Assembly: GCA_963664405.1 (NCBI GenBank)
Contig: OY761158.1
Location: 6,208,001 to 6,272,000 of the forward strand
Direction: 5' to 3'
Source: Thermoanaerobaculia bacterium
GTDB taxonomy: Bacteria; Acidobacteriota; Thermoanaerobaculia; Multivoradales; Multivoraceae
Length of the DNA: 64,000 nucleotides
In this document: one piece after another, positions 749 to 12,634 of the stretch
Layout of the letters: each line of letters opens with the position of its first letter
How positions within the stretch are numbered: position 1 is the stretch's first letter
The notes under the pieces: model-generated
What the model was told of the DNA's origin: nothing
Seen by the model: the letters and a program-made list of their open reading frames with translations, nothing else
Databases searched by the model: none
Made by a program: the position numbers and the translations under genes

Positions 749-3098
749 GTGGACACGTCAAGCCGAGACCGTGGAGGACCCCTTACGAAAGCAGCCGCAC
801 TCAAATCACTCGTCCTGATCGCTTCCCTCTGTCTCTGCGCTCTGCCGTTATCGGCGGACGGTCCGCAGACCGGAACCATCGACGGTCGCGTCCTCGACGC
901 GCAGGGAGGCGGCCTGCCGGGGGCCACGGTGACCCTGAAGGGTCCGCAGAGAACGACGACGGTGATGTCCGACGCCGGCGGGAAGTACCGCTTCGCGCTC
1001 CTTCAGGCCGGTGACTTCACGGTCACTGCAGAGCTCGAGGGGCTCGGTTCGGCCGAGCAGACGGTCGGGCTCACTCCGGGTCAGCGCCGCGGTGTCGACC
1101 TCACTCTGGCGGGAGGAGCCGCCGAGGAGATCACCGTCACCGGTGAGGCGGCCCAGATCAGCAAGTACGACACCGGCTCGGTCAGCTCGCTGCAGTCGGA
1201 GGCGAACGAGAATATCGCCTTCGCCAATCGTAACTATGCCGCCAGTGTTCGCGCCCTTCCCGGGGTGGTGAGCGCCGGCGAGTCCGACGCTCTCCCGATG
1301 ATCAACGGCGGCATCACCACCGAGACCCAGGTCTTGATCGAAGGTGTCGACACCTCGAACACGCGGCGCGGTGGTGAGACGCGGGTGATCATGCCGACGT
1401 CGTCCCTGTCGGAGACTCGGATCGAGAGCGGCGGGTTCGGCGCCGAGTACGGTCGGGTGACCGGCGGCATCATCAACTCGACGGTCAAGACCGGTACCAA
1501 CGAGTTTCACGGCGACTTTCTCTACATCGGCCAGAATCCCAAGTGGAGGGCCGAGGACAACCTGGGCCTCGAACGTCCGGACGATCCTTTCGCCAGCTTC
1601 GAGACTTCGCTGGGCGGGCCGATCTGGCGCGAGAAGGCCTGGTTCTTCGCCGCCTATGCGGACTTCACCAACAACTCCCTCGACGAGCTCCGGGACGGCA
1701 CGGTTATCGATGATAGTCGGACCTCGGAGCCGCGCATCCTCAAGGTGAATCTCCAGCCCAGCGACCGCCACCAACTGGCTATCACCGAGATCGATTCGCG
1801 GGGGAATGGCATCGCCAATCCGGGTAATTCCGGTGATCTTTTGTCGGTCATGGATCGTCCGCTGTACGCCCAGGTTCTGACCGGGACCTGGAGCTTCGCC
1901 GCGACCAGCTCGACCTTCGTCGAGGTCAAGGCGTCTGAGCGCAAGGACCTCTTTCCTCGCACTCTTCTCTTCCCCAAGGATCCGTCGACCCTCAACCCCG
2001 ACGCTTCCGACAATCCGGTTGACAACAATTTCCGCTATCGCGATCTCAACACGAATCTGCGCTGGAATGGCCCGGCGAGTGGGAGTGGCATCGGCTACAA
2101 CGACTTTCCTCGCGACACTCTGGGCGGCTCGGCGACCTTGTTCAAGGCCAACCACGAGCTCAAGTTCGGCATCGACTTCCAAGACATCGAATTCACCAAT
2201 CTGGGTCAGGTCGGCAAGGAATATCGCGGCCGCACCTACTGCTTTGAATGCCCCGGTGGCTACGTGGCACCCCAGAGAGTCAGGATCTTCGAGGATTCCG
2301 AGCCGTCTCGCAATACCGGCGAGGAGCTCTCGGTGTATGCCCAGGATCGGATCGATGTCGGTGATAAGTGGAGTTTCCACCTCGGCGTGCGTCTCGACGA
2401 AGAGCGGATGTGGAACGACGTCGGTAGGCAGGTCGACGATTCGAGCGACGTGGCGCCGCGTCTGACCGCAGTCTACGACGTCAAGGCTGACGGCAAGCTG
2501 CTGGTGCGGGCGAGCGTCGGGAGCTACTACCAGAACCTCGGCCTGGACTTCGCGTTCCGAGAGTTCAGCGAGCTGCCCACCGGGCAGCAGGCGTTCACCG
2601 AGTACAACTGGAACCCTGCTACCCAGCGCTACGACCGCTTCCGTACCACCGTCGCCCCGTCGGGCGCGGGGGGTGAGATCCAGATGGTCGATCACGCTCG
2701 CAGAGACCAGATTACGGTTGGGGTCGACGTCCAGCTGTCTCGGAACTGGGTGTTCAAGGGGGGCCTGGTGGCACATGAGACCGACGGCATTCCCTTCGGC
2801 AACACTCAGTACCTCGGTGGCACACCCGGACACAGGTTTCGAGATCGACTTCGCTACCCGAGACGAGGCACGAGACGGGAATCAGCTACAGGACTACTTC
2901 ACCCTCAACCTGTCGGCGATGTACTCTTTCCCGATCAAGGGTCCGGTGGAGGGGGAGCTCGGCTTCGAGGCTTCCAACATCACCGAGAAGGACGAAGTGC
3001 TCCTGGTCAACTCGCTCGAGGGCCTGACGGCTGCCTCCTCGGTCAACTCGTGGCAGCAGCCTCGTGAGTTTCGTCTCAAGGTCGGGATCCGCTTCTAG
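749..3098 (+). pseudogene. TonB-dependent receptor with N-terminal carboxypeptidase-regulatory-like domain, disrupted near 2815
   Basis: Signal peptide, GTIDGRVLD..GGLPGATVTL, AEYGRVTGGIINSTVKTGTNEFHG. The true C-terminus (QQPREFRLKVGIRF) is in another frame (ORF 2673..3098). Confidence 0.75.
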
Positions 3099-3111
3099 GT
3101 TTCCAAGCTCT

Positions 3112-3152
3112 GTCTCGAGGCGGGTGGCGCCGTTGCACCCCCGCCTCGAGAC
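3112..3152 (+). terminator. Stem-loop after the TonB gene (probable terminator)
   Basis: GTCTCGAGGCGGG / CCCGCCTCGAGAC 13-bp inverted repeat followed by a pyrimidine tract. Confidence 0.55.
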
Positions 3153-3256
3153 CTTCCTTCACTTCGGTAGCTCTCAGCTCTGCCTCGAGGCACCCTCAGC
3201 GTGACAGTGCCGGCCAGCCGGTGCCGACGGTCAACCCCTGATACGCTGCTCTGGCG

Positions 3257-3673
3257 ATGTTGGAGTCCGAATCACTCATTCAGACTGTCCACCAGCGATT
3301 GGCCAGCTCTGCCGAAGACGAAGTCGTCTCCGCGTTCCTTTTCGGCAGCCGCGTCGAGGGACGCGGGCATCGGGAGAGCGACGTCGACGTGGCGGTCCTT
3401 CTGCGGCCTGAGCTCGACCGACGACAGCGCTTCGAGACCCGGCTGCGGCTGACCTCGGAGCTCATCGCCGCGCTCCATTTCAACGACATCGACCTCGTCG
3501 TGCTCAACGATGCTCCGCCTCTCCTCGCTCGCCGAATCGTGCTCGACGGGGAGCGGGTGTTTTGCGCCGACGCCGAGGCCGATCACGCCTTCCGACGGGA
3601 TGTGCAGCTGCGGGCCGCAGATCTCGCACCCTTCATCGAGCGTGGCCGGAGAGCGCTGCTTGCCGCGGTCTAG
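3257..3673 (+). CDS. MNT nucleotidyltransferase antitoxin (HEPN/MNT type VII TA)
   Basis: FLFGSRVEGRGHRESDVDVAV = GSx10DxD motif; directly upstream of a HEPN gene. Confidence 0.88.
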   Translation: MLESESLIQTVHQRLASSAEDEVVSAFLFGSRVEGRGHRESDVDVAVLLRPELDRRQRFETRLRLTSELIAALHFNDIDLVVLNDAPPLLARRIVLDGERVFCADAEADHAFRRDVQLRAADLAPFIERGRRALLAAV

Positions 3674-3675
3674 CG

Positions 3676-4089
3676 ATGACCTTCTTGGTCGAACGCCTCG
3701 CCAACCTCAGCCTTCATCTTGCTCATCTGCGAGAGTTGAAGCCGCGCGTGGCCTCCGCTGACGATCTGCAGCGTGACCTGTCTCTACATAACGACGTTCT
3801 CTACTCGCTGCTCTGCGTTTGCCAGCTAGTGATCGATATCGCGGGGGAGCTCTCTGCTCGCCGGGGTCGACGATTCGAGGACTACACGGAGGCCGTGCGC
3901 AACCTCTCGGCCTACGACGACATGTCGCCGGAGCTCATCCAGGAGCTCGAACGGCTTCCGGGATTTCGCAACGTGCTGATCCACGAATACGTAGCCTTGG
4001 ATCTCGAGCGGGCGGTCGAGGCCCTGGAGCGCCTGTCCCCGATCGAGGACTTCGTCAGCGTGGTCAAGAGGCTCGAGCGCGAGGGCTGA
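3676..4089 (+). CDS. HEPN/DUF86 RNase toxin
   Basis: GFRNVLIHEY = Rx4HxY motif; ATG 2 nt after the MNT stop. Confidence 0.88.
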   Translation: MTFLVERLANLSLHLAHLRELKPRVASADDLQRDLSLHNDVLYSLLCVCQLVIDIAGELSARRGRRFEDYTEAVRNLSAYDDMSPELIQELERLPGFRNVLIHEYVALDLERAVEALERLSPIEDFVSVVKRLEREG

Positions 4090-4123
4090 CGGCTGGACCC
4101 TGAGGCGCGGCACCTACCCTCGA

Positions 4124-4138
4124 TATTCGGCTGGCACC
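4124..4138 (+). repeat. Cassette-boundary motif copy 1 (TATTCGGCTGGCACC)
   Basis: Exact 15-mer also at 4881 and 5511. Confidence 0.85.
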
Positions 4139-4187
4139 TACGGAGGCGATACGGACATATTGACATCTCCGTGATATGTTTTTCTGT

Positions 4188-4430
4188 ATGCGTACTACCT
4201 TGAACCTCGATGACGGCTTGATGACCGCTGTTAAGAAGGCTGCTGCCGACAGCGGAAAGACCATGACCGAGGTCGTCGAAGAAGCACTCACGGATGCACT
4301 GCTGCGGCGGCCGGTCGAGGATGCTCAGTCCTTCGAACTGGCATTACCCACGGTAAAGGGCAGGACCAAGCCGGGCGTCGACCTCACCGATCGGGAGTCG
4401 CTGTTCGAGATCATGGAAGGCCGGCGTTGA
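4188..4430 (+). CDS. vapB: VapB-type RHH antitoxin
   Basis: MRTTLNLDDGL N-terminus; 4-nt overlap with the PIN gene. Confidence 0.8.
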   Translation: MRTTLNLDDGLMTAVKKAAADSGKTMTEVVEEALTDALLRRPVEDAQSFELALPTVKGRTKPGVDLTDRESLFEIMEGRR

Positions 4431-4861
4431 TTGCCGTCGACACCAACGTCCTCGTCCATGCCCATCGAGAGGGATCGGAGCATCACCATGCGGCTCTCGA
4501 GCGGCTGCGAGATCTGGCCGAGGGCCCGGAGCCGTGGGGCCTGCCGATCTTCTGTGTGGGTGAGTTCGTGCGAGTGGTGACTCACCCTCGTCTCTTCGAT
4601 CCCCCTTCGACGTTGGCCCAAGCCCTGGCGGTGATCGACCGTCTCCGCCGCAGCCCTACGCTTCGGGTGCTCTCCCCACGAGAGCGCTTCTTCGAGTTGT
4701 TCTCGTCGTGTCTCACGACGGCGGATGCCCGTGGCAACCTGGCTTTCGATGCCATGATCGCCGCCGTCTGCCTCGAGCACGGCGCCCGTCAGCTGCTCAC
4801 ACTCGACCGCGACTTTCGCCGCTTTGATCGACTTGAGGTGGTTGGTTATGGGCCGGCCTGA
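4427..4861 (+). CDS. vapC: VapC PIN-domain toxin
   Basis: IAVDTNVLV...E...GNLAFDAMIAA...TLDRDFRRF. Confidence 0.88.
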   Translation: MIAVDTNVLVHAHREGSEHHHAALERLRDLAEGPEPWGLPIFCVGEFVRVVTHPRLFDPPSTLAQALAVIDRLRRSPTLRVLSPRERFFELFSSCLTTADARGNLAFDAMIAAVCLEHGARQLLTLDRDFRRFDRLEVVGYGPA

Positions 4862-4880
4862 GAGCGCTGGCAATGCTCAC

Positions 4881-4919
4881 TATTCGGCTGGCACCCTTGC
4901 CCGCACCCTTGCCCACGGG
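4881..4919 (+). repeat. Cassette-boundary motif copy 2 with duplicated GCACCCTTGCCC tail
   Basis: TATTCGGCTGGCACCCTTGCCC-GCACCCTTGCCC-ACGGG. Confidence 0.85.
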
Positions 4920-4978
4920 GACACGCGAACCATCAATCCTTTCTGCTCTCCAGCTGCCGGCGGAGGGTACGTTAGAAT

Positions 4979-5194
4979 GTGAGCGAGGAGATTTCCATGG
5001 CTACCGCCGACGTCAGCGCGAAAACTCGAATCCGTAATCTGCTAGAGCAGCAGCCCGACGACAGCTCGTACGATGAGATCTTGCGAGAGTTGGCCCTGCA
5101 CCGCATGATCGAGCGAGGCCTCGCCGATGCAGACGCAGGGCGGGTCCTCAGCCATGAAGAAATGGGCCGTCGAATCGACTCATGGGCCAAGTAG
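4979..5194 (+). CDS. Small antitoxin of a RelE/ParE pair
   Basis: 71 aa, IERGLADADAGRVLSHEE motif; overlaps the toxin gene; start could be ATG 4997. Confidence 0.75.
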   Translation: MSEEISMATADVSAKTRIRNLLEQQPDDSSYDEILRELALHRMIERGLADADAGRVLSHEEMGRRIDSWAK

Positions 5195-5478
5195 GATGGA
5201 CCGAAGAGGCGGCCCGTTGGCTCAGAGAAATCCACGACTACATCGCTGATGAGGACCCGGAGGCTGCCATCCGAGTCGTCGGCGAGATCCACTCTCGCGC
5301 TGAGTCACTGACCTCGTTTCCTGAGCGTGGCTACCGCTACCTGGATCTGCCCGAGCGAGAAGTACGCATTCTCCTGTGGGGCCACTACCGGATCGCGTAT
5401 CTCGTCCGCTCGTCGGGTGACGTCGAGATACTCGGCATCTTCCACGGGGCACTCGAGATCGAGCGGTACTTGCGCTGA
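5182..5478 (+). CDS. RelE/ParE family toxin
   Basis: WTEEAARWLREIHDYIA...FPERG...YRIAY...ILGIFHGA. Confidence 0.85.
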   Translation: MGQVGWTEEAARWLREIHDYIADEDPEAAIRVVGEIHSRAESLTSFPERGYRYLDLPEREVRILLWGHYRIAYLVRSSGDVEILGIFHGALEIERYLR

Positions 5479-5510
5479 GTAGGTCAGACTACTAGGTCCG
5501 CAGGGCCCAT

Positions 5511-5537
5511 TATTCGGCTGGCACCCTTGCCCACGGG
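5511..5537 (+). repeat. Cassette-boundary motif copy 3
   Basis: TATTCGGCTGGCACCCTTGCCCACGGG. Confidence 0.85.
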
Positions 5538-5552
5538 CGCTTCTGGCTAAAA

Positions 5553-5577
5553 TGTCCATGGACAGTGTCTATGGACA
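5553..5577. promoter_or_regulatory. Tandem palindromic operator upstream of the Phd antitoxin
   Basis: TGTCCATGGACA (perfect palindrome) and TGTCTATGGACA 1 nt apart; TA autorepression operators typically look like this. Confidence 0.55.
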
Positions 5578-5596
5578 GAGCTAGAATGGGTGGACA

Positions 5597-5854
5597 ATGG
5601 AGGACACCGACACTAGAACGATTCCGGCTGGTGACTTCAAACAGACCTGTTTGAAACTGATAGATGAGGTCAAGACCACGGGGATCCCGATCGTGATTAC
5701 GAAGCACGGCAAGGCCGTCGCCCAGCTTGCGCCACTGGAGCCGGACCAGATCGAGCTTCCCTGGCCGCTCGAGCTCGCCGCGCGCGCGACGATCGAAGGG
5801 GATCTCGTAACCCCGGCGACCGACCCGACAGAGTGGGAAGTTCTTTCAGATTGA
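5597..5854 (+). CDS. Phd/YefM family antitoxin
   Basis: IPAGDFKQTCLKLIDEV...IVITKHGKAVAQL. Confidence 0.85.
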   Translation: MEDTDTRTIPAGDFKQTCLKLIDEVKTTGIPIVITKHGKAVAQLAPLEPDQIELPWPLELAARATIEGDLVTPATDPTEWEVLSD

Positions 5855-6243
5855 AGCTCCTCCTCGATACCCACGTCTGGCTCTGGCGCTTGATCGAGCC
5901 CGCGCGGCTGTCGAAGGACGCCACTGCTCTGCTGGCCGAACGTGAGCAGGAGCTCTTTTTGTCACCGATCTCGGTCTGGGAGACCATGGTCCTGTGCCGG
6001 AAGGGTCGGCTGACCCTGCGGCCGGACCCGGCGTCTTGGGTTCGTGCGGCTCTCGCTGGCTCGCCGGTCAGAACCGCCCTCATGACGCACGAAGTCGCGA
6101 TCCGCAGCGAATCCCTGGAAGGTTTCGACAATTCGGATCCCGCCGACCGCTTCCTAGTGGCTACGGCTCTCGAGGCCGGTCTCAAGATCGTCACCTACGA
6201 CGAGCGAATCCGCTCCTATGCGGCGGTCGAAACGGTCTGGTGA
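5851..6243 (+). CDS. vapC: VapC PIN-domain toxin
   Basis: TTG start overlapping the antitoxin stop; LLLDTHVWLW...SVWE...DPADRFLVATA...TYD. Confidence 0.88.
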   Translation: MKLLLDTHVWLWRLIEPARLSKDATALLAEREQELFLSPISVWETMVLCRKGRLTLRPDPASWVRAALAGSPVRTALMTHEVAIRSESLEGFDNSDPADRFLVATALEAGLKIVTYDERIRSYAAVETVW

Positions 6244-6297
6244 TCTCGCCGGGCCGTTCCAAGTACCGTTAGTTACTAGCTAAATACTCGGCTGGCA

Positions 6298-8332
6298 GTG
6301 CGACACGAAGGAGGAATCTGATGACCTGATCGAAAGACAGAGATAGGAGACCTCTGGGTCTCGAAGGCCGGCGGGTGAAAGTCCCGCCCGGGGAGTTGTC
6401 GGTACACCCCGGTAGCCGCCGGAGCAGTCGATGCGGGTGACCGTCCGGCTGAAGCCTCCGGAACAGCTGGAGTAAGTCCAGTGGGCAAAGGTGCAGGCCG
6501 CAACGCGAGTGAACCCTGAGAAGGCCCCGAAAGTTACTTGCTGGAGCCGACCCTCCTGCCATAAGGGGAAGGCCGCCGCTCGACGGAGGAGCAACCGACC
6601 GTTGAATCCGCCGAATCCAGCCGGGGTAGTGGGGGTGGCATGTACCGAAGGTCTTTGAGGCAACGTGTGAGACCCACGTCGGTGGCGGGTTGCGACCGCC
6701 AACCGGGAAGGCGTAAAAGGTCGTTCTCGGGCCGTTGTGGGAGTCGGAGGGGCTTGTATTACTGAGGAAGCCGGGTAACTCCGGTGGAGGGAAGGAGCCC
6801 TAGTTCTGGTGCGCTTTGGAAGGAGAAGGAGACCGGGATTGACGCAAAGTCTAGGACCCGAACGAGTCGAGCGACTCCGGAAGAAGCTGTGTGACAAGGC
6901 CAAGCGAGAGCCCGACTTTCGCTTCTACACCCTGTACGACAAGGTCTGCTGGCCCGAGACCCTATCTGTGGCCTACGCCCGCGCGAAAGCCAACCGGGGA
7001 GGCCCGGGAGTGGACGGAGTCCGGTTCGAGGAGATCGAGTCGTATGGGGTCGAGCGATGGCTGGGAGAGCTCCGAGAGGAGCTGGTAGAGGAAAGCTACC
7101 GTCCGCAACCGGTGCGGCGGGTGAAGATTAGGAAGCCCGGCGGCGGAGAGCGTGCGCTCGGGATCCCGACGATTCGGGATCGAGTGGCGCAAACCGCCGC
7201 AGTGCTGATCCTCGAGCCGATCTTCGAGGCCGATTTTGAAGAGAACGTGTATGGGTATCGACCGAAGCGGAGCGCCCATGATGCGCTAGCTGCCGTACGA
7301 GACGGTTTGTACGAGGGCCAGGCCCACGTCGTCGACGCCGACATCGCCCAGTACTTTGACACGATTCCCCATGGGGATTTGCTGAAGTCGGTGGCGCGTC
7401 GGATCGCCGATGGGAAGATCCTGCGACTCTTGAAGCTGTGGCTGAAGTCTCCAGTGGACGAGCAAGATGGCTCGGGTCGCTGGCGACGGACAGGCGGCAA
7501 GAAGAGGAAGCGGGGGATTCCGCAGGGTGGGGTGGTCTCACCCCTCCTGGCCAACATCTACATCAACCGGCTCGTGCGTCACTGGCGCAACTCAGGCGCC
7601 TCGAAACGCCTAGGTCAGATCGTCTCTTACGCCGATGATTTCGTCATCCTGTGCAGGAGCGAGGCGCAGGCTCGCGAGAGCTTGGATCTCGTCTCTCACT
7701 GGCTGACAAAGCTCGGCTTAGCGATTCACCCGGACAAGACCCGCCTGTGCGGGGTGTGGGAGGAGTCGTTCGACTTTCTGGGGTACACCTTCAGATCGCA
7801 TCGACGCTTCCGCACCGGCCAGCGGATCTTGACTGCGAACCCTTCGAAGAAGGCCCAGAAGCGGCTCCAGGAGAAGGTCAACGCCCTGCTGTATCGGGGG
7901 AACCCGGAGCCCTGGCCCGAGCTGCGTCTGCAGCTGAACCGTCTTTTGATGGGATGGGCCAACTACTTCAGCTTCGGATGGACGGCAGCTGCGGATCGCG
8001 CCGTCTGGTGGCATGTCGCGAGACGTGCCCGACGATTCCTCTGTCGACGACACAAACTCCGATCGCAAGGAGTCGCCCGGTTTTCTGCCTCCGAGGTCTA
8101 CGGCTCAGCCGCAGTCCTCGACATCAAGCAGTACCGGGATCGAAAGGGTCGACTCGCGCATGCCTCGTCGTGAAGCCAGTCCGGGAGCCGTGTGCGGGAG
8201 AACCGCAAGCACGGTTCGATGAGAGGCGGCGGGAAACGGAGCCATGGTCAGGAGATTGAGGCACTCGCAAACGAAAGGGCGAGAAAACAGATGGGCCTGA
8301 CCTACAGCCACCGCGCCCGCCGTCGACTCCAC
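6298..8332 (+). mobile_element. Group II intron (IIB-like), full length, inserted in motif copy 4
   Basis: 5' GTGCG at 6298; domain V GAGCCGTGTGCGGGAGAACCGCAAGCACGGTTC at 8185-8217; domain VI ending GTCGACTCCAC at 8332; encodes an RT/maturase. Confidence 0.9.
6809..8173 (+). CDS. ltrA: Group II intron reverse transcriptase/maturase, no endonuclease domain
   Basis: RALGIPTIRDRVAQ, GIPQGGVVSPLLANIY, YADD, FDFLGYTF, X-domain GWANYF; ends without an HNH domain; real start may be TTG 6839. Confidence 0.92.
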   Translation: MRFGRRRRPGLTQSLGPERVERLRKKLCDKAKREPDFRFYTLYDKVCWPETLSVAYARAKANRGGPGVDGVRFEEIESYGVERWLGELREELVEESYRPQPVRRVKIRKPGGGERALGIPTIRDRVAQTAAVLILEPIFEADFEENVYGYRPKRSAHDALAAVRDGLYEGQAHVVDADIAQYFDTIPHGDLLKSVARRIADGKILRLLKLWLKSPVDEQDGSGRWRRTGGKKRKRGIPQGGVVSPLLANIYINRLVRHWRNSGASKRLGQIVSYADDFVILCRSEAQARESLDLVSHWLTKLGLAIHPDKTRLCGVWEESFDFLGYTFRSHRRFRTGQRILTANPSKKAQKRLQEKVNALLYRGNPEPWPELRLQLNRLLMGWANYFSFGWTAAADRAVWWHVARRARRFLCRRHKLRSQGVARFSASEVYGSAAVLDIKQYRDRKGRLAHASS

Positions 8333-8374
8333 CCTTTTTCTGGGCGCCACTGCGCGGCTATATGACCGTCGCCC

Positions 8375-8384
8375 TATTCGGCTG
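8375..8384 (+). repeat. Partial cassette-boundary motif copy 5 (TATTCGGCTG)
   Basis: First 10 nt of the motif, 42 nt after the intron end. Confidence 0.55.
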
Positions 8385-8453
8385 ATCTGAAGCATGTACA
8401 CTCCGCACAATCAGCGCCAGAGAAAACGCTCATCGAGCGCGAGCACAACCTAA

Positions 8454-10458
8454 GGGTCGGCGCGGAAATAAGTTTCCAGTATCTGGGGTGACCATACCAC
8501 TGCCCCCTTCTTCAGCCACCGCATAATCCTCCGGTACGCGCCTTGTTTGCAAGGTTTAGAGCTAGCATAGCCCTGCCCGCATTTGGTATAGTTTCCCCTG
8601 TCACCTCTTTTGGAAGGGGAACTATACCAAATGGTACGAGCCGAAGATCGTGATGCAACAGTGCGCGAGCTCTTGATGAGCGAACAGATGGCCACCATGG
8701 ATGAGCTCAAGGACGCCATGGGAACCCGAGCCACCATGACGGTCTACCGTTCGCTGTCTCGATTGGGCTATTTGGCCAGCTACTCGGATCGAGGGCGGTT
8801 CTATACCTTGAACGAGATTCCCGATTTCGACGATCTGGGTTTGTGGTCGTGCGGTTCGGCGAGGTTCAGTCGGCATGGCAGCCTCCTCGAAACTGCGGTG
8901 GCTGCCGTGGACCGGTCCGCTGCCGGCTATACGGCTTCTGAACTCGAGCTCCTGCTGCAGGTCGAGGTCAAGCACGCGATGTTGCACCTCGTTCGTCGCA
9001 AGAGAATCGTACGATCCAGAGTTGGGAAGAGGTTCGTATACTTGTGCTCGGAAACAGGGCGCCGTCGTCAGCAGAAGCTGATGCGCAACGAACGGCAGGC
9101 TCTCCAGGATGTAGCTGCCAGCCTCGTTCCAGAAGTGCTCCCCGAGGAGCTCAGGGCTGCCATCGTTTTATTCTTCAGCCTGCTAGACGAACGCCAGCGG
9201 CGGCTCTTCGCTGGCCTGGAAGCGACCAAGCTCGGGCATGGCGGCGACCGGAAGATCGCCGATCTTCTGGACCTGGACCCTCATACAGTCGCAAAAGGAC
9301 GTCGCGAGCTCTTCGGCGGCTCCGTGGAGCGCGGAAGAGTTCGAAGAGCAGGCGGTGGCAACCAACGAGTGGAAAAAAAACGCCCGAGATAGTCGATGGA
9401 ATCCATTCCATACTCGAGGCCGATATAGCTGGTGATCCCATGTCATCAAAAAGATGGACGCACGAGACCGCTGCAAAGGTGGCCCAATGCCTTGCCGAAC
9501 GCCTTGACATCATCGTATCGGCTACGGTGGTGCGTCGATTGCTCGCAGACCTGAACTATTCCCTCAAGAGCAATAGGAAATGTCTGTCTTCGGGGAACTC
9601 CCCAGATCGTGATGCACAGTTCAAGGCCATCAAGCGACTGCGCGAGGATTTCACAAGCGCTGGCGACCCGATCATCAGCGTCGATACGAAGAAGAAGGAG
9701 CTGATCGGTCGGTTCAAGAACCAGGGACAGACATGGTGCCGCGAGGCCAAGCGGGTCAAGGATCACGACTTCCGGTCCGAAGCTCTCGCCATCGCCTCCC
9801 CCTATGGGATCTACGATCTTCAGAGGAACTTCGGCGTTCTCGTCCTCGGACAGTCGTCGGACACGCCGGAGTTCGCTGTCAACAGCATCGCGACCTGGTG
9901 GCTCAAATACGGTCGATCTCACTATCCGGCGTCTCAGCGTCTCCTCATTCTTGCCGACAGCGGCGCAAGCAACGGCGCACGGCTTCGAGCCTGGAAGAAG
10001 TACCTCCAGGAGAAGCTCGTAGACAAGTGCGGCCTCATCATCACCGTCGCCCACTATCCAACTGGCACCAGTAAATGGAATCCCATCGAGCACAGGATGT
10101 TCAGCGAGATTAGCAAGAACTGGGCCGGAGTTCCTCTCGAGAGTTTCGAGATCCTCGTCAACCTCGTCCGCAACACGACGACATCCACCGGACTGCGCGT
10201 CGAGCCGTGCCGTGATCAACGCCAATACCAGAAAGGAGTCAGGGTATCGGACAAGGAAATGCTGCAGCTCGCGGTGGCCAGGAGCGACTTCCTAGGAAAG
10301 TGGAACTACACCCTCTCGCCGAGACCGCGAACCGAGCAGGAAGAGCTTGCCCCACAGCCTGGGCTCAGCTCACCACCACCTCCAATGCAGCGACCGCCCT
10401 GTGGCGCCTCGGCCTCACACGCTCCGGCGATAATGTGAAGTTATTTCCGCGCCGACCC
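8454..10458 (+). mobile_element. ISAzo13-family IS, copy 1 (2005 bp)
   Basis: 18-bp terminal IRs GGGTCGGCGCGGAAATAA / TTATTTCCGCGCCGACCC; preceded by TAA. Confidence 0.9.
8610..10438 (+). CDS. ISAzo13 transposase, OrfA (8610-9392) + OrfB (DDE, to 10438), joined by a probable -1 frameshift at A8 9373-9380
   Basis: ISVDTKKKELIG, DHDF, PYGIYD, ADSGASNG, GTSKWNPIEHRMFS motifs; OrfB is in the -1 frame and the A-run is identical in both copies. Confidence 0.88.
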
Positions 10459-10461
10459 TTA

Positions 10462-12466
10462 GGGTCGGCGCGGAAATAAGTTTCCAGTATCTGGGGTGAC
10501 CATACCACTGCCCCCTTCTTCAGCCACCGCATAATCCTCCGGTACGCGCCTTGTTTGCAAGGTTTAGAGCTAGCATAGCCCTGCCCGCATTTGGTATAGT
10601 TTTCCCTGTCACCTCTTTTGGAAGGGGAACTATACCAAATGGTACGAGCCGAAGATCGTGATGCAACAGTGCGCGAGCTCTTGATGAGCGAACAGATGGC
10701 CATCATGGATGAGCTCAAGGACGCCATGGGAACCCGAGCCACCATGACGGTCTACCGTTCGCTGTCTCGATTGGGCTATTTGGCCAGCTACTCGGATCGA
10801 GGGCGGTTCTATACCTTGAACGAGATTCCCGATTTCGACGATCTGGGTTTGTGGTCGTGCGGTTCGGCGAGGTTCAGTCGGCATGGCAGCCTCCTCGAAA
10901 CTGCGGTGGCTGCCGTGGACCGGTCCGCTGCCGGCTATACGGCTTCTGAACTCGAGCTCCTGCTGCAGGTCGAGGTCAAGCACGCGATGTTGCACCTCGT
11001 TCGTCGCAAGAGAATCGTACGATCCAGAGTTGGGAAGAGGTTCGTATACTTGTGCTCGGAAACAGGGCGCCGTCGTCAGCAGAAGCTGATGCGCAACGAA
11101 CGGCAGGCTCTCCAGGATGTAGCTGCCAGCCTCGTTCCAGAAGTGCTCCCCGAGGAGCTCAGGGCTGCCATCGTTTTATTCTTCAGCCTGCTAGACGAAC
11201 GCCAGCGGCGGCTCTTCGCTGGCCTGGAAGCGACCAAGCTCGGGCATGGCGGCGACCGGAAGATCGCCGATCTTCTGGACCTGGACCCTCATACAGTCGC
11301 AAAAGGACGTCGCGAGCTCTTCGGCGGCTCCGTGGAGCGCGGAAGAGTTCGAAGAGCAGGCGGTGGCAACCAACGAGTGGAAAAAAAACGCCCGAGATAG
11401 TCGATGGAATCCATTCCATACTCGAGGCCGATATAGCTGGTGATCCCATGTCATCAAAAAGATGGACGCACGAGACCGCTGCAAAGGTGGCCCAATGCCT
11501 TGCCGAACGCCTTGACATCATCGTATCGGCTACGGTGGTGCGTCGATTGCTCGCAGACCTGAACTATTCCCTCAAGAGCAATAGGAAATGTCTGTCTTCG
11601 GGGAACTCCCCAGATCGTGATGCACAGTTCAAGGCCATCAAGCGACTGCGCGAGGATTTCACAAGCGCTGGCGACCCGATCATCAGCGTCGATACGAAGA
11701 AGAAGGAGCTGATCGGTCGGTTCAAGAACCAGGGACAGACATGGTGCCGCGAGGCCAAGCGGGTCAAGGATCACGACTTCCGGTCCGAAGCTCTCGCCAT
11801 CGCCTCCCCCTATGGGATCTACGATCTTCAGAGGAACTTCGGCGTTCTCGTCCTCGGACAGTCGTCGGACACGCCGGAGTTCGCTGTCAACAGCATCGCG
11901 ACCTGGTGGCTCAAATACGGTCGATCTCACTATCCGGCGTCTCAGCGTCTCCTCATTCTTGCCGACAGCGGCGCAAGCAACGGCGCACGGCTTCGAGCCT
12001 GGAAGAAGTACCTCCAGGAGAAGCTCGTAGACAAGTGCGGCCTCATCATCACCGTCGCCCACTATCCAACTGGCACCAGTAAATGGAATCCCATCGAGCA
12101 CAGGATGTTCAGCGAGATCAGCAAGAACTGGGCCGGAGTTCCTCTCGAGAGTTTCGAGATCCTCGTCAACCTCGTCCGCAACACGACGACATCCACCGGA
12201 CTGCGCGTCGAGCCGTGCCGTGATCAACGCCAATACCAGAAAGGAGTCAGGGTATCGGACAAGGAAATGCTGCAGCTCGCGGTGGCCAGGAGCGACTTCC
12301 TAGGAAAGTGGAACTACACCCTCTCGCCGAGACCGCGAACCGAGCAGGAAGAGCTTGCCCCACAGCCTGGGCTCAGCTCACCACCACCTCCAATGCAGCG
12401 ACCGCCCTGTGGCGCCTCGGCCTCACACGCTCCGGCGATAATGTGAAGTTATTTCCGCGCCGACCC
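10462..12466 (+). mobile_element. ISAzo13-family IS, copy 2 (2005 bp)
   Basis: Same IRs; followed by TAA; three substitutions seen relative to copy 1. Confidence 0.9.
10618..12446 (+). CDS. ISAzo13 transposase OrfA/OrfB, copy 2
   Basis: Near-identical to 8610-10438; A8 run at 11381-11388. Confidence 0.88.
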
Positions 12467-12634
12467 TAAGTGGACCGTAACACCCAAACGTTTAGCGCCT
12501 GAGCGGCCCTCGCGGCCGATCTCTGCGTTACGCTTCCTCGACATAGTCCCCGCTATGCCTGCGTCAGCGCGCCTTGGTCTCGACCACGAATGACTCACTC
12601 AGCCACTAAACGTTCGAGTGTTACGGTCCACTAG
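12467..12634 (+). repeat. ~167-bp hairpin element, copy A
   Basis: Arms AGTGGACCGTAACAC / GTGTTACGGTCCACT; core CGTTACGC...CTCGACA...TATGCCT...CGCGCCTTG. Confidence 0.8.

Follow-up and report, generated by a model that had tools for sequence, protein, structure and literature searches.

How did four unrelated toxin-antitoxin (TA) modules come to stand head to tail on one strand, with the same short sequence after each of them? In chromosomal integron cassette arrays rich in TA modules, unrelated modules likewise stand head to tail with a recurring site after each. The modules in question lie in a stretch of 64,000 nucleotides from a Thermoanaerobaculia bacterium (here called the window), which covers positions 6208001-6272000 of a genome assembled as a single contig of 6.78 Mb with 62.6% G+C. 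The recurring sequence is a 15-bp box, TATTCGGCTGGCACC. A reading of this DNA made from its letters alone (the sequence-only reading) had proposed that modules were added one at a time at a regenerating site, as in an integron-like gene-capture system, by a recombinase or transposase encoded elsewhere. Our analysis of the whole genome and its relatives points to a different answer. With a probability of roughly 0.7, the box is a dispersed intergenic repeat of the type of repetitive extragenic palindromic (REP) sequences and terminal inverted repeats (TIRs), whose cognate enzymes are a family of ~300-aa Y1 HUH transposases resembling RAYT and TIRYT proteins. The box is also the homing site of a group II intron.

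A dispersed intergenic repeat

Across the whole genome the core of the box, GG[C/G]TGGCACC, occurs in 139 copies, 77 of which are intergenic, as compared with 45 copies, 3 of them intergenic, for the reversed pattern used as a control. The exact 13-mer is found 41 times and its reversed control once. The division into coding and intergenic copies relies on a rough gene map from our own codon-bias caller (5717 genes; 85.4% coding, 14.6% intergenic). The intergenic copies have an upstream consensus, aaTATTC, in common, giving the full consensus aaTATTCGG[C/G]TGGCACCt, and their orientation relative to the neighbouring genes is mixed. They occur as singlets, as inverted doublets (for example at genome positions 12670 and 12709, and also in the relative G028) and as box-plus-hairpin units; in another relative, G020, the boxes form tandem same-strand clusters with a spacing of 18-42 nt. 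The distribution of the 13-mer among 30 relatives is patchy: genomes of the same family have 0-4 copies, while G020 has 36, G019 12, G028 10 and G021 7.

A perfect hairpin of at least 6 bp follows within 14 nt on the 3' side of the box in 21 of the 77 intergenic copies; among 2000 random intergenic sites, 83 have one. Stems of at least four sequence types occur, among them GGCAGCC/GGCTGCC, CGTTCGC/GCGAACG and GCCGGCC/GGCCGGC. REP sequences are usually described as imperfect palindromes whose foot, GT[AG]G, is conserved, and this does not fit the box: the conserved part is the unpaired box itself, and no GTAG is conserved. We also rejected a hairpin formed by TTCGGCTG and CAGCCGAA, as no compensating change accompanies the C/G variation of the box. 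Rfam searches, at gathering thresholds in the window and at E-value thresholds for five box loci, matched the intron described below and no family at the box.

Y1 transposase genes bracketed by the box

PF01797 has 13 matches in the genome, 12 of which exceed the cut-off, and the open frames concerned measure 303-443 aa. A search at the protein level gives 15 copies. In the four proteins tested, Y1_Tnp is the sole Pfam domain and takes up about the first 120 residues. Their best NCBIfam match is REP_Tyr_transpos (NF047646), at 40-59 bits and thus below its 80-bit cut-off, while their scores with the IS200 profile NF033573, whose cut-off is 55 bits, do not exceed 22. In one of the proteins (L037), the HUH and YxxxQ motifs align with those of ISDra2 TnpA (2xm3, E = 3e-4); the corresponding comparison with Escherichia coli TnpA-REP (4er8) gives E = 0.075.

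These genes are associated with the box far more often than other genes. A divergent core copy with at most one mismatch lies within 350 nt upstream of 10 of the 13 Y1 genes, compared with 237 of all 5717 genes, and in eight of them it is located at -107 to -144; an eleventh Y1 gene has an intron-split box copy upstream. Same-strand copies at +219 to +276 accompany 5 of the 13 genes (297/5717 overall), and the box is present on both sides of three (15/5717 overall). At three of six Y1 loci examined, the gene stands between inverted flanking repeats containing GGTGCCACCC / GGGTGGNACC. The idea of the sequence-only reading that a recombinase or transposase encoded elsewhere is tied to the box is supported to this extent, and the HUH (Y1) type is one that it had listed as worth looking for.

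The association extends to other genomes. Y1 homologues were found in 24 of the 30 relatives, in 1-39 copies each. Among nine best-homologue loci examined, the gene-box layout recurs in two (in G020 and G022); the remaining seven have no such box, as expected if each Y1 lineage has its own repeat. G021 shows the layout too, as does G019, where an exact ATATTCGGCTGGCACCT occurs twice upstream of a 316-aa Y1 gene. The pairing of box and gene is kept across several families of the order, at least four besides that of the present genome. The Y1 genes include two near-identical pairs. The genes at 5855828-5856818 and 6180425-6181415 are 99.9% identical over 991 bp, but their surroundings have nothing in common apart from diverged copies of the box, placed equally far upstream; the picture resembles gene conversion or a gene-sized mobile unit in a frame of boxes.

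Similar arrangements have been described. According to two papers (Di Nocera et al. 2013, PMC3733652; Quentin et al. 2018, PMC6006769), TIRtrons with their TIRYT genes and REPtrons with their RAYT genes are Y1 HUH genes bracketed by their own dispersed repeats, and the 2013 paper names an Acidobacteria-specific group of such genes. As in the systems outlined there, the Y1 genes studied here are framed by inverted copies of a short repeat, which is found in intergenic DNA elsewhere too, as singlets, dimers and clusters, and each gene lineage has its own repeat variant. The description of a TIRtron, a RAYT-like gene flanked by inverted repeats for which a hairpin is not required and which can be members of a repeat family, applies to the present loci. 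Two features of REPtrons are present as well, namely many short, mostly intergenic copies and inverted repeat flanks at the Y1 gene. The conserved mark differs, being GG[C/G]TGGCACC here and GTAG or GGGGWSAS there; likewise, only the 21 of 77 copies mentioned above carry a hairpin, and the genes are multi-copy (13-15), encoding proteins of ~300 aa that fall below the RAYT cut-off. RAYT genes typically occur in one copy per genome, as stated by Bertels et al. (2017, PMC5581495), in contrast to our 13 PF01797 matches and 15 protein matches. The family also shares traits with IS200/IS605 elements: the HUH and YxxxQ motifs align with those of ISDra2 TnpA, and the genes are multi-copy with two near-identical pairs. 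Unlike in IS200/IS605, however, the proteins are twice as long and poorly matched by NF033573, and the boxes far outnumber the genes and mostly stand alone.

The array and the intron inside it

The array consists of the following features, in window coordinates; the modules were identified by Pfam searches and the box copies by motif search, except where a reading of the sequence is mentioned.

3122-3131, + strand: degenerate core copy GGGTGGCGCC with one mismatch, in a hairpin-forming stretch after a TonB-dependent receptor gene and left of TA1
3257-3673, + strand: TA1, nucleotidyltransferase antitoxin (PF18765, 1.5e-18; Polbeta/NTP_transf_2)
3676-4089, + strand: TA1, HepT toxin (PF01934, 1.3e-14)
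4090-4117, + strand: putative split box copy just past the HepT stop, made up of CGGCTG, 14 nt and GCACCTAC (from a reading of the sequence)
4124-4138, + strand: box copy 1, TATTCGGCTGGCACC
4191-4430, + strand: TA2, ribbon-helix-helix antitoxin (PF01402)
4427-4861, + strand: TA2, VapC/PIN toxin (PF01850, 1.1e-16)
4881-4914, + strand: box copy 2 with a 12-nt tandem duplication of GCACCCTTGCCC (4891-4902 and 4903-4914)
4979-5194, + strand: TA3, antitoxin with no match in the Pfam search
5182-5478, + strand: TA3, ParE toxin (PF05016, 3.9e-14)
5511-5537, + strand: box copy 3, with 27 nt in common with copy 2 once the 12-nt duplication of copy 2 is set aside
5597-5854, + strand: TA4, Phd/YefM antitoxin (PF02604)
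5851-6243, + strand: TA4, PIN toxin (PF01850, 2.5e-14)
6285-6297, + strand: 5' part of box copy 4, TACTCGGCTGGCA, forming the 5' exon of the intron, with the final CC of the box at 8333-8334
8375-8384, + strand: partial box copy TATTCGGCTG, ending after CGGCTG

Pfam thus confirms four different TA modules lying head to tail on one strand. The exact box occurs at 4124, 4881 and 5511, and TACTCGGCTGGCAGT at 6285. All copies have the same orientation and begin 34, 19, 32 and 41 nt after the toxin stops of TA1 to TA4, and the units measured from box to box are 757, 630 and 774 bp long; the spacing of 19-41 nt and the unit length of about 630-775 bp given in the sequence-only reading were accurate. 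Permitting up to three mismatches, there are 13 matches in the window, while shuffled sequences average 3.5 and none of 100 reaches 13. The site is therefore not random, and by eye it resembles neither attC nor Xer sites, as that reading had also recognized. At the other TA loci of the window there is no match with at most two mismatches, which agrees with the earlier observation that the motif is absent there.

All five spacers of the island contain box copies on the + strand, one or two in each, and these spacers are the only non-coding DNA there. The core copy at 3122 lies 22 nt past the likely stop of the receptor gene, which means that TA1 has a copy on its left flank too. The array copies carry the upstream consensus of the intergenic copies and are thus typical members of the family, in the form of box-only singlets; four of the five spacers fold no better than shuffled sequences. 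The longer tail noticed earlier in copies 2 and 3 is real and amounts to 27 nt: an 18-nt query from the shared stretch, GGCACCCTTGCCCACGGG, has no other match in the genome with fewer than two mismatches. Also confirmed are the local duplications at copies 1 and 2, since GCACCTAC is present twice around copy 1 and GCACCCTTGCCC is repeated in tandem in copy 2. By our reading of the sequence, four irregularities share the breakpoint CGGCTG^GCACC: the split copy, the duplication of GCACCTAC, the tandem duplication in copy 2 and the end of the partial copy at 8384. This partial copy, which starts at 8375 and which the earlier reading had pointed out, is likewise real, its 10-mer TATTCGGCTG occurring no more than 15 times in the genome. 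Truncation of this copy by the insertion sequence (IS) pair downstream was rejected, because that pair begins only at ~8453.

Copy 4 had been reported as split by an intron, and this proved correct. As the 3' exon after the intron begins with CC, the intact site can be reconstructed as TACTCGGCTGGCA^CC: the copy is complete and not degenerate, and the intron interrupts it at TGGCA^CC. The relevant features are these.

6298-8332, + strand: group II intron (GTGCGAC...CTCCAC; Rfam RF02003, 99.4 bits, and RF00029, 41.4 bits), with ends determined from its copies
6526-6531, + strand: candidate exon-binding site 2 (EBS2), CCCGAA, complementary to TTCGGG
6557-6561, + strand: candidate exon-binding site 1 (EBS1), UGCCA, complementary to TGGCA
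6839-8173, + strand: open reading frame (ORF) of the reverse transcriptase-maturase (PF00078, RVT_1; PF08388, GIIM), with no endonuclease domain
~8453-10459 and ~10461-12467, + strand: two tandem ISAzo13-family insertion sequences (PF07592, 1e-102) with terminal inverted repeats, closing the island

The 5' GTGCGAC, the Rfam matches and the reverse transcriptase-maturase ORF together identify the element as a group II intron, a class marked by a 5' GUGYG, domains I-VI and such an ORF in domain IV. An Rfam alignment of domains V/VI running to 8382 was rejected because the intron copies end at 8332. All six BLAST matches in the genome that start at the first base of the intron adjoin TCGG[C/G]TGGCA (5' ends at genome positions 1589105, 2075364, 2592101, 2890811, 6214298 and 6396014). 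The putative EBS2 and EBS1 lie in domain I, are unpaired in the minimum-energy fold of the stretch, and have targets that together make up the box core. Because all six ends are at one fixed position and the EBS candidates match, the box is the proper homing site of this intron. According to Tobes and Pareja (2006, PMC1525189), mobile elements that target REP sequences include IS elements and two of nine group II intron copies in Pseudomonas putida KT2440. The present intron is similar in that a mobile element lands in a harmless dispersed repeat; it differs in that six of six 5' ends fall at one fixed box position, with matching EBS2 and EBS1 candidates.

Among the intron copies, the one in the window alone has kept the reverse transcriptase-maturase ORF. 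Derivatives with no ORF or with an interruption are found at genome positions 2592101-2592955, 2890811-2892987 and 6396014-6401264, and a joint 6910>8052 with six extra letters, seen in contigs of all four public sequencing runs considered here, corresponds to such a deleted intron copy. The two ISAzo13-family copies have a repeat spacing of 2008 nt and are ~2007 bp long each, with one base between them; the first 300 nt compared are 98% alike. Immediately after them, shortly before an 865-aa gene, lies a 35-nt inverted repeat (12469-12503 and 12598-12632; 89% complementary, with arms 94 nt apart). The best orthologues of the 865-aa gene, in G005 and G014 (with no same-genus genome to compare), have no upstream neighbours in common with the window.

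Contigs from four public runs belonging to two studies reproduce positions 2786-6317 identically to the window in two of the runs (X12 and X14). None of the contig joints falls at a box, all being inside the intron; as rare variants drop out of contigs, this is silent on excision. A contig of run X16 from a second strain, ~4% different, matches the window at 2300-2815 and past that point is unlike it, so a close relative may differ at or before the island. The receptor gene to the left of the array consists of two overlapping frames, 749-3067 and 2673-3098, the second of which ends in GIRF as usual. The public-run contigs show 1-nt indels at 2650, 2654 and 2827 within it, and the frame break may be a frameshift, an assembly error or a strain difference.

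Explanations for the array

Outside the array, the box is mostly not linked to TA modules. The genome has 43 PIN, 11 ParE and 3 HepT matches. We used 55 of them, leaving out a PIN match that fell under the cut-off and was interrupted by an in-frame stop, and a ParE match likewise interrupted; 52 of the 55 could be mapped to genes. No core copy lies within 150 nt of any of the 48 PIN, ParE and HepT toxin genes outside the array, while 69 of all 5717 genes have one at that distance. DNA relatives of TA1, TA2 and TA3 occur as single modules in other genomes of the order with 65-78% identity that covers the genes only, and none of the 11 loci fetched has the core beside the module. In 80 metagenome contigs with VapC relatives (456 kb), two exact core copies were found, neither of them near the gene; this search returned no close relative of VapC, the best being 74% identical. 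The absence of the box beside these relatives argues only weakly against capture, for many such genomes may lack the box family. A donor copy of any array module with a box was not found in these searches.

The proposal of a dedicated integron-like system is thus not supported: the box is scattered over the genome in every orientation relative to genes, with 77 intergenic cores, it is absent within 150 nt of the other 48 toxin genes, and no integron integrase was found. The sequence-only reading had itself named genome-wide scatter and a known REP as results that would speak against cassettes, and on both counts the outcome went against the cassette reading, the box behaving as a REP/TIR-type repeat. 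A classical integron, or a Xer-dependent (pdif-like) module array, would account for the head-to-tail order of the TA modules and for the site that recurs between them. However, no integron integrase was found in the genome; the best match to TIGR02249 (122 bits against a cut-off of 265) is a generic, multi-copy tyrosine recombinase. The site shows no dyad symmetry or R-box pair by eye, it is identical between units and not cassette-specific, and it is dispersed genome-wide as part of a transposase-linked repeat, unlike attC. We regard this explanation as scarcely credible. Seven copies of a gene for a 308-316-aa tyrosine recombinase occur in the genome, including two pairs with identical scores; one copy lies at 6274047-6274853, ~2 kb past the end of the window, and the gene is probably part of another mobile element.

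A transcription signal between autoregulated TA operons, be it a sigma-54 -24-like promoter element, an operator, an insulator or a terminator, is suggested by the TGGCAC within the box, by the position of the box between a stop codon and the promoter region of the next operon, and by the GC-rich hairpin that follows many genomic copies. The sigma-54 promoter consensus is TGGCAC-N5-TTGC. Such a promoter was rejected, since the sequence after TGGCACC varies in length and content, with no TTGC conserved at that spacing and no GC conserved where the -12 element would lie. A promoter is also at odds with the inverted doublets, the tandem clusters and the bracketing of Y1 genes, and the orientation to genes is mixed. 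As for a terminator, the hairpins are followed by no T-run, a terminator scan gave 3 sites against 3.4 expected, none at a box, and most of the spacers fold no better than shuffles. A role of this kind is very improbable.

Several observations count against our preferred reading of the box as a REP/TIR-type repeat. The regularity of five spacers with copies on one strand far exceeds anything in the rest of the genome and is not expected, because independent insertion at the genome-wide rate (69/5717) is too low to produce it. TA3 is framed by a unique 27-nt direct repeat made up of copies 2 and 3, and the breakpoints recurring at CGGCTG^GCACC, together with this repeat, look like the traces of site-directed events. 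Within 400 nt, five of the 48 other toxin genes have a core copy, a mild enrichment over the 39 such cases among 1251 other small genes (odds ratio 3.6, p = 0.02), with the copies of those five on the antitoxin side or further off and in either orientation. In G028, a module of a HigB-like and a helix-turn-helix protein stands between two inverted box doublets of 70 nt that are 97% identical (L055:2114-2183 and 3051-3120, 937 nt apart). With regard to the proposed enzymes, the Y1 proteins score below the RAYT cut-off (59 against 80 bits) and are multi-copy, unlike typical RAYTs, and the orientation of the box shows no clear replichore bias (origin at ~2.74 Mb and terminus at ~6.76 Mb by GC skew), which lends no support to lagging-strand targeting.

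Part of these observations is what capture by an HUH enzyme would predict: a Y1 transposase would cut the box on single-stranded DNA, excise a circle of TA module plus box and paste it beside another box, regenerating the site. The one-strand copies in all five spacers, the direct repeat flanking the ParE module, the recurring breakpoints and duplications, and the HigBA-like module of G028 between its doublets all accord with this, and the numerous Y1 genes with their two near-identical pairs suggest recent activity. Yet the other toxin genes have no box within 150 nt, and neither the relatives of TA1, TA2 and TA3 (11 genomes) nor those of VapC (80 metagenome contigs) have it beside them, with the reservation made above. 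Moreover, the Y1 genes are bracketed by inverted copies and the cassettes by direct ones. For a single Y1 unit, a duplicate pair reveals the ends, and there homology stops after the whole box and not at CGGCTG^G. Capture of this kind is, in our estimate, improbable, and the same holds for a dedicated capture system in general. The unique 27-nt repeat around the ParE module fits one insertion at a regenerating site, which supports that part of the earlier claim, whereas a dedicated integron-like process is unsupported. A bolder version, in which the Y1 box doubles as a regenerating insertion site for circles of one TA module plus box, cut and pasted on single-stranded DNA into same-strand arrays, making it a transposase-based counterpart of the integron with the array and the HigBA-like module of G028 as two products, is a long shot.

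The boxes may instead have served as short portable homologies, with RecA-dependent or slipped-strand recombination inserting, duplicating or shuffling modules and a tandem box cluster after the receptor gene acting as the landing pad. Tandem same-strand clusters like those of G020 would provide such a pad. Remnants of tandem copies can be seen at 4090-4117 with 4124 and at 6285 with 8375, and the 12-nt duplication in copy 2 and the 27-nt direct repeat around TA3 are of the expected kind. Against it, 15-27 nt is short for RecA-dependent recombination, the landing of four unrelated TA families between boxes is left unexplained, and no donor module copy with a box was found. We consider passive homology unlikely.

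Under the preferred reading, a dispersed REP/TIR-type repeat, a Y1 enzyme would bind or cut the box on single-stranded DNA and so spread copies into intergenic DNA. The island copies are closest to each other and would have arisen within the island, through local spread or through recombination between boxes as modules inserted. The group II intron homes to the box, presumably by pairing EBS2, CCCGAA, with TTCGGG and EBS1, UGCCA, with TGGCA. Besides the four TA operons, this island of mobile DNA contains the intron and two IS copies. What the analysis demonstrates is the repeat family, its association with Y1 genes and the target of the intron; action of the enzyme on the box and the formation of the array are inferred.

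With these findings, the long RAYT/TIRYT-like Y1 transposases of Acidobacteriota, which have been little studied, gain a well-defined repeat box, and the intron is a clear example of group II exon-binding sites (here candidates) that correspond to a dispersed repeat. For annotation, the lesson is to take such boxes neither for cassette sites nor for promoters. If the minority reading of capture by a Y1 enzyme were true, bacteria would have a second, mechanistically different route of cassette assembly. The box also offers a concrete substrate for testing the activity of the Y1 enzymes.

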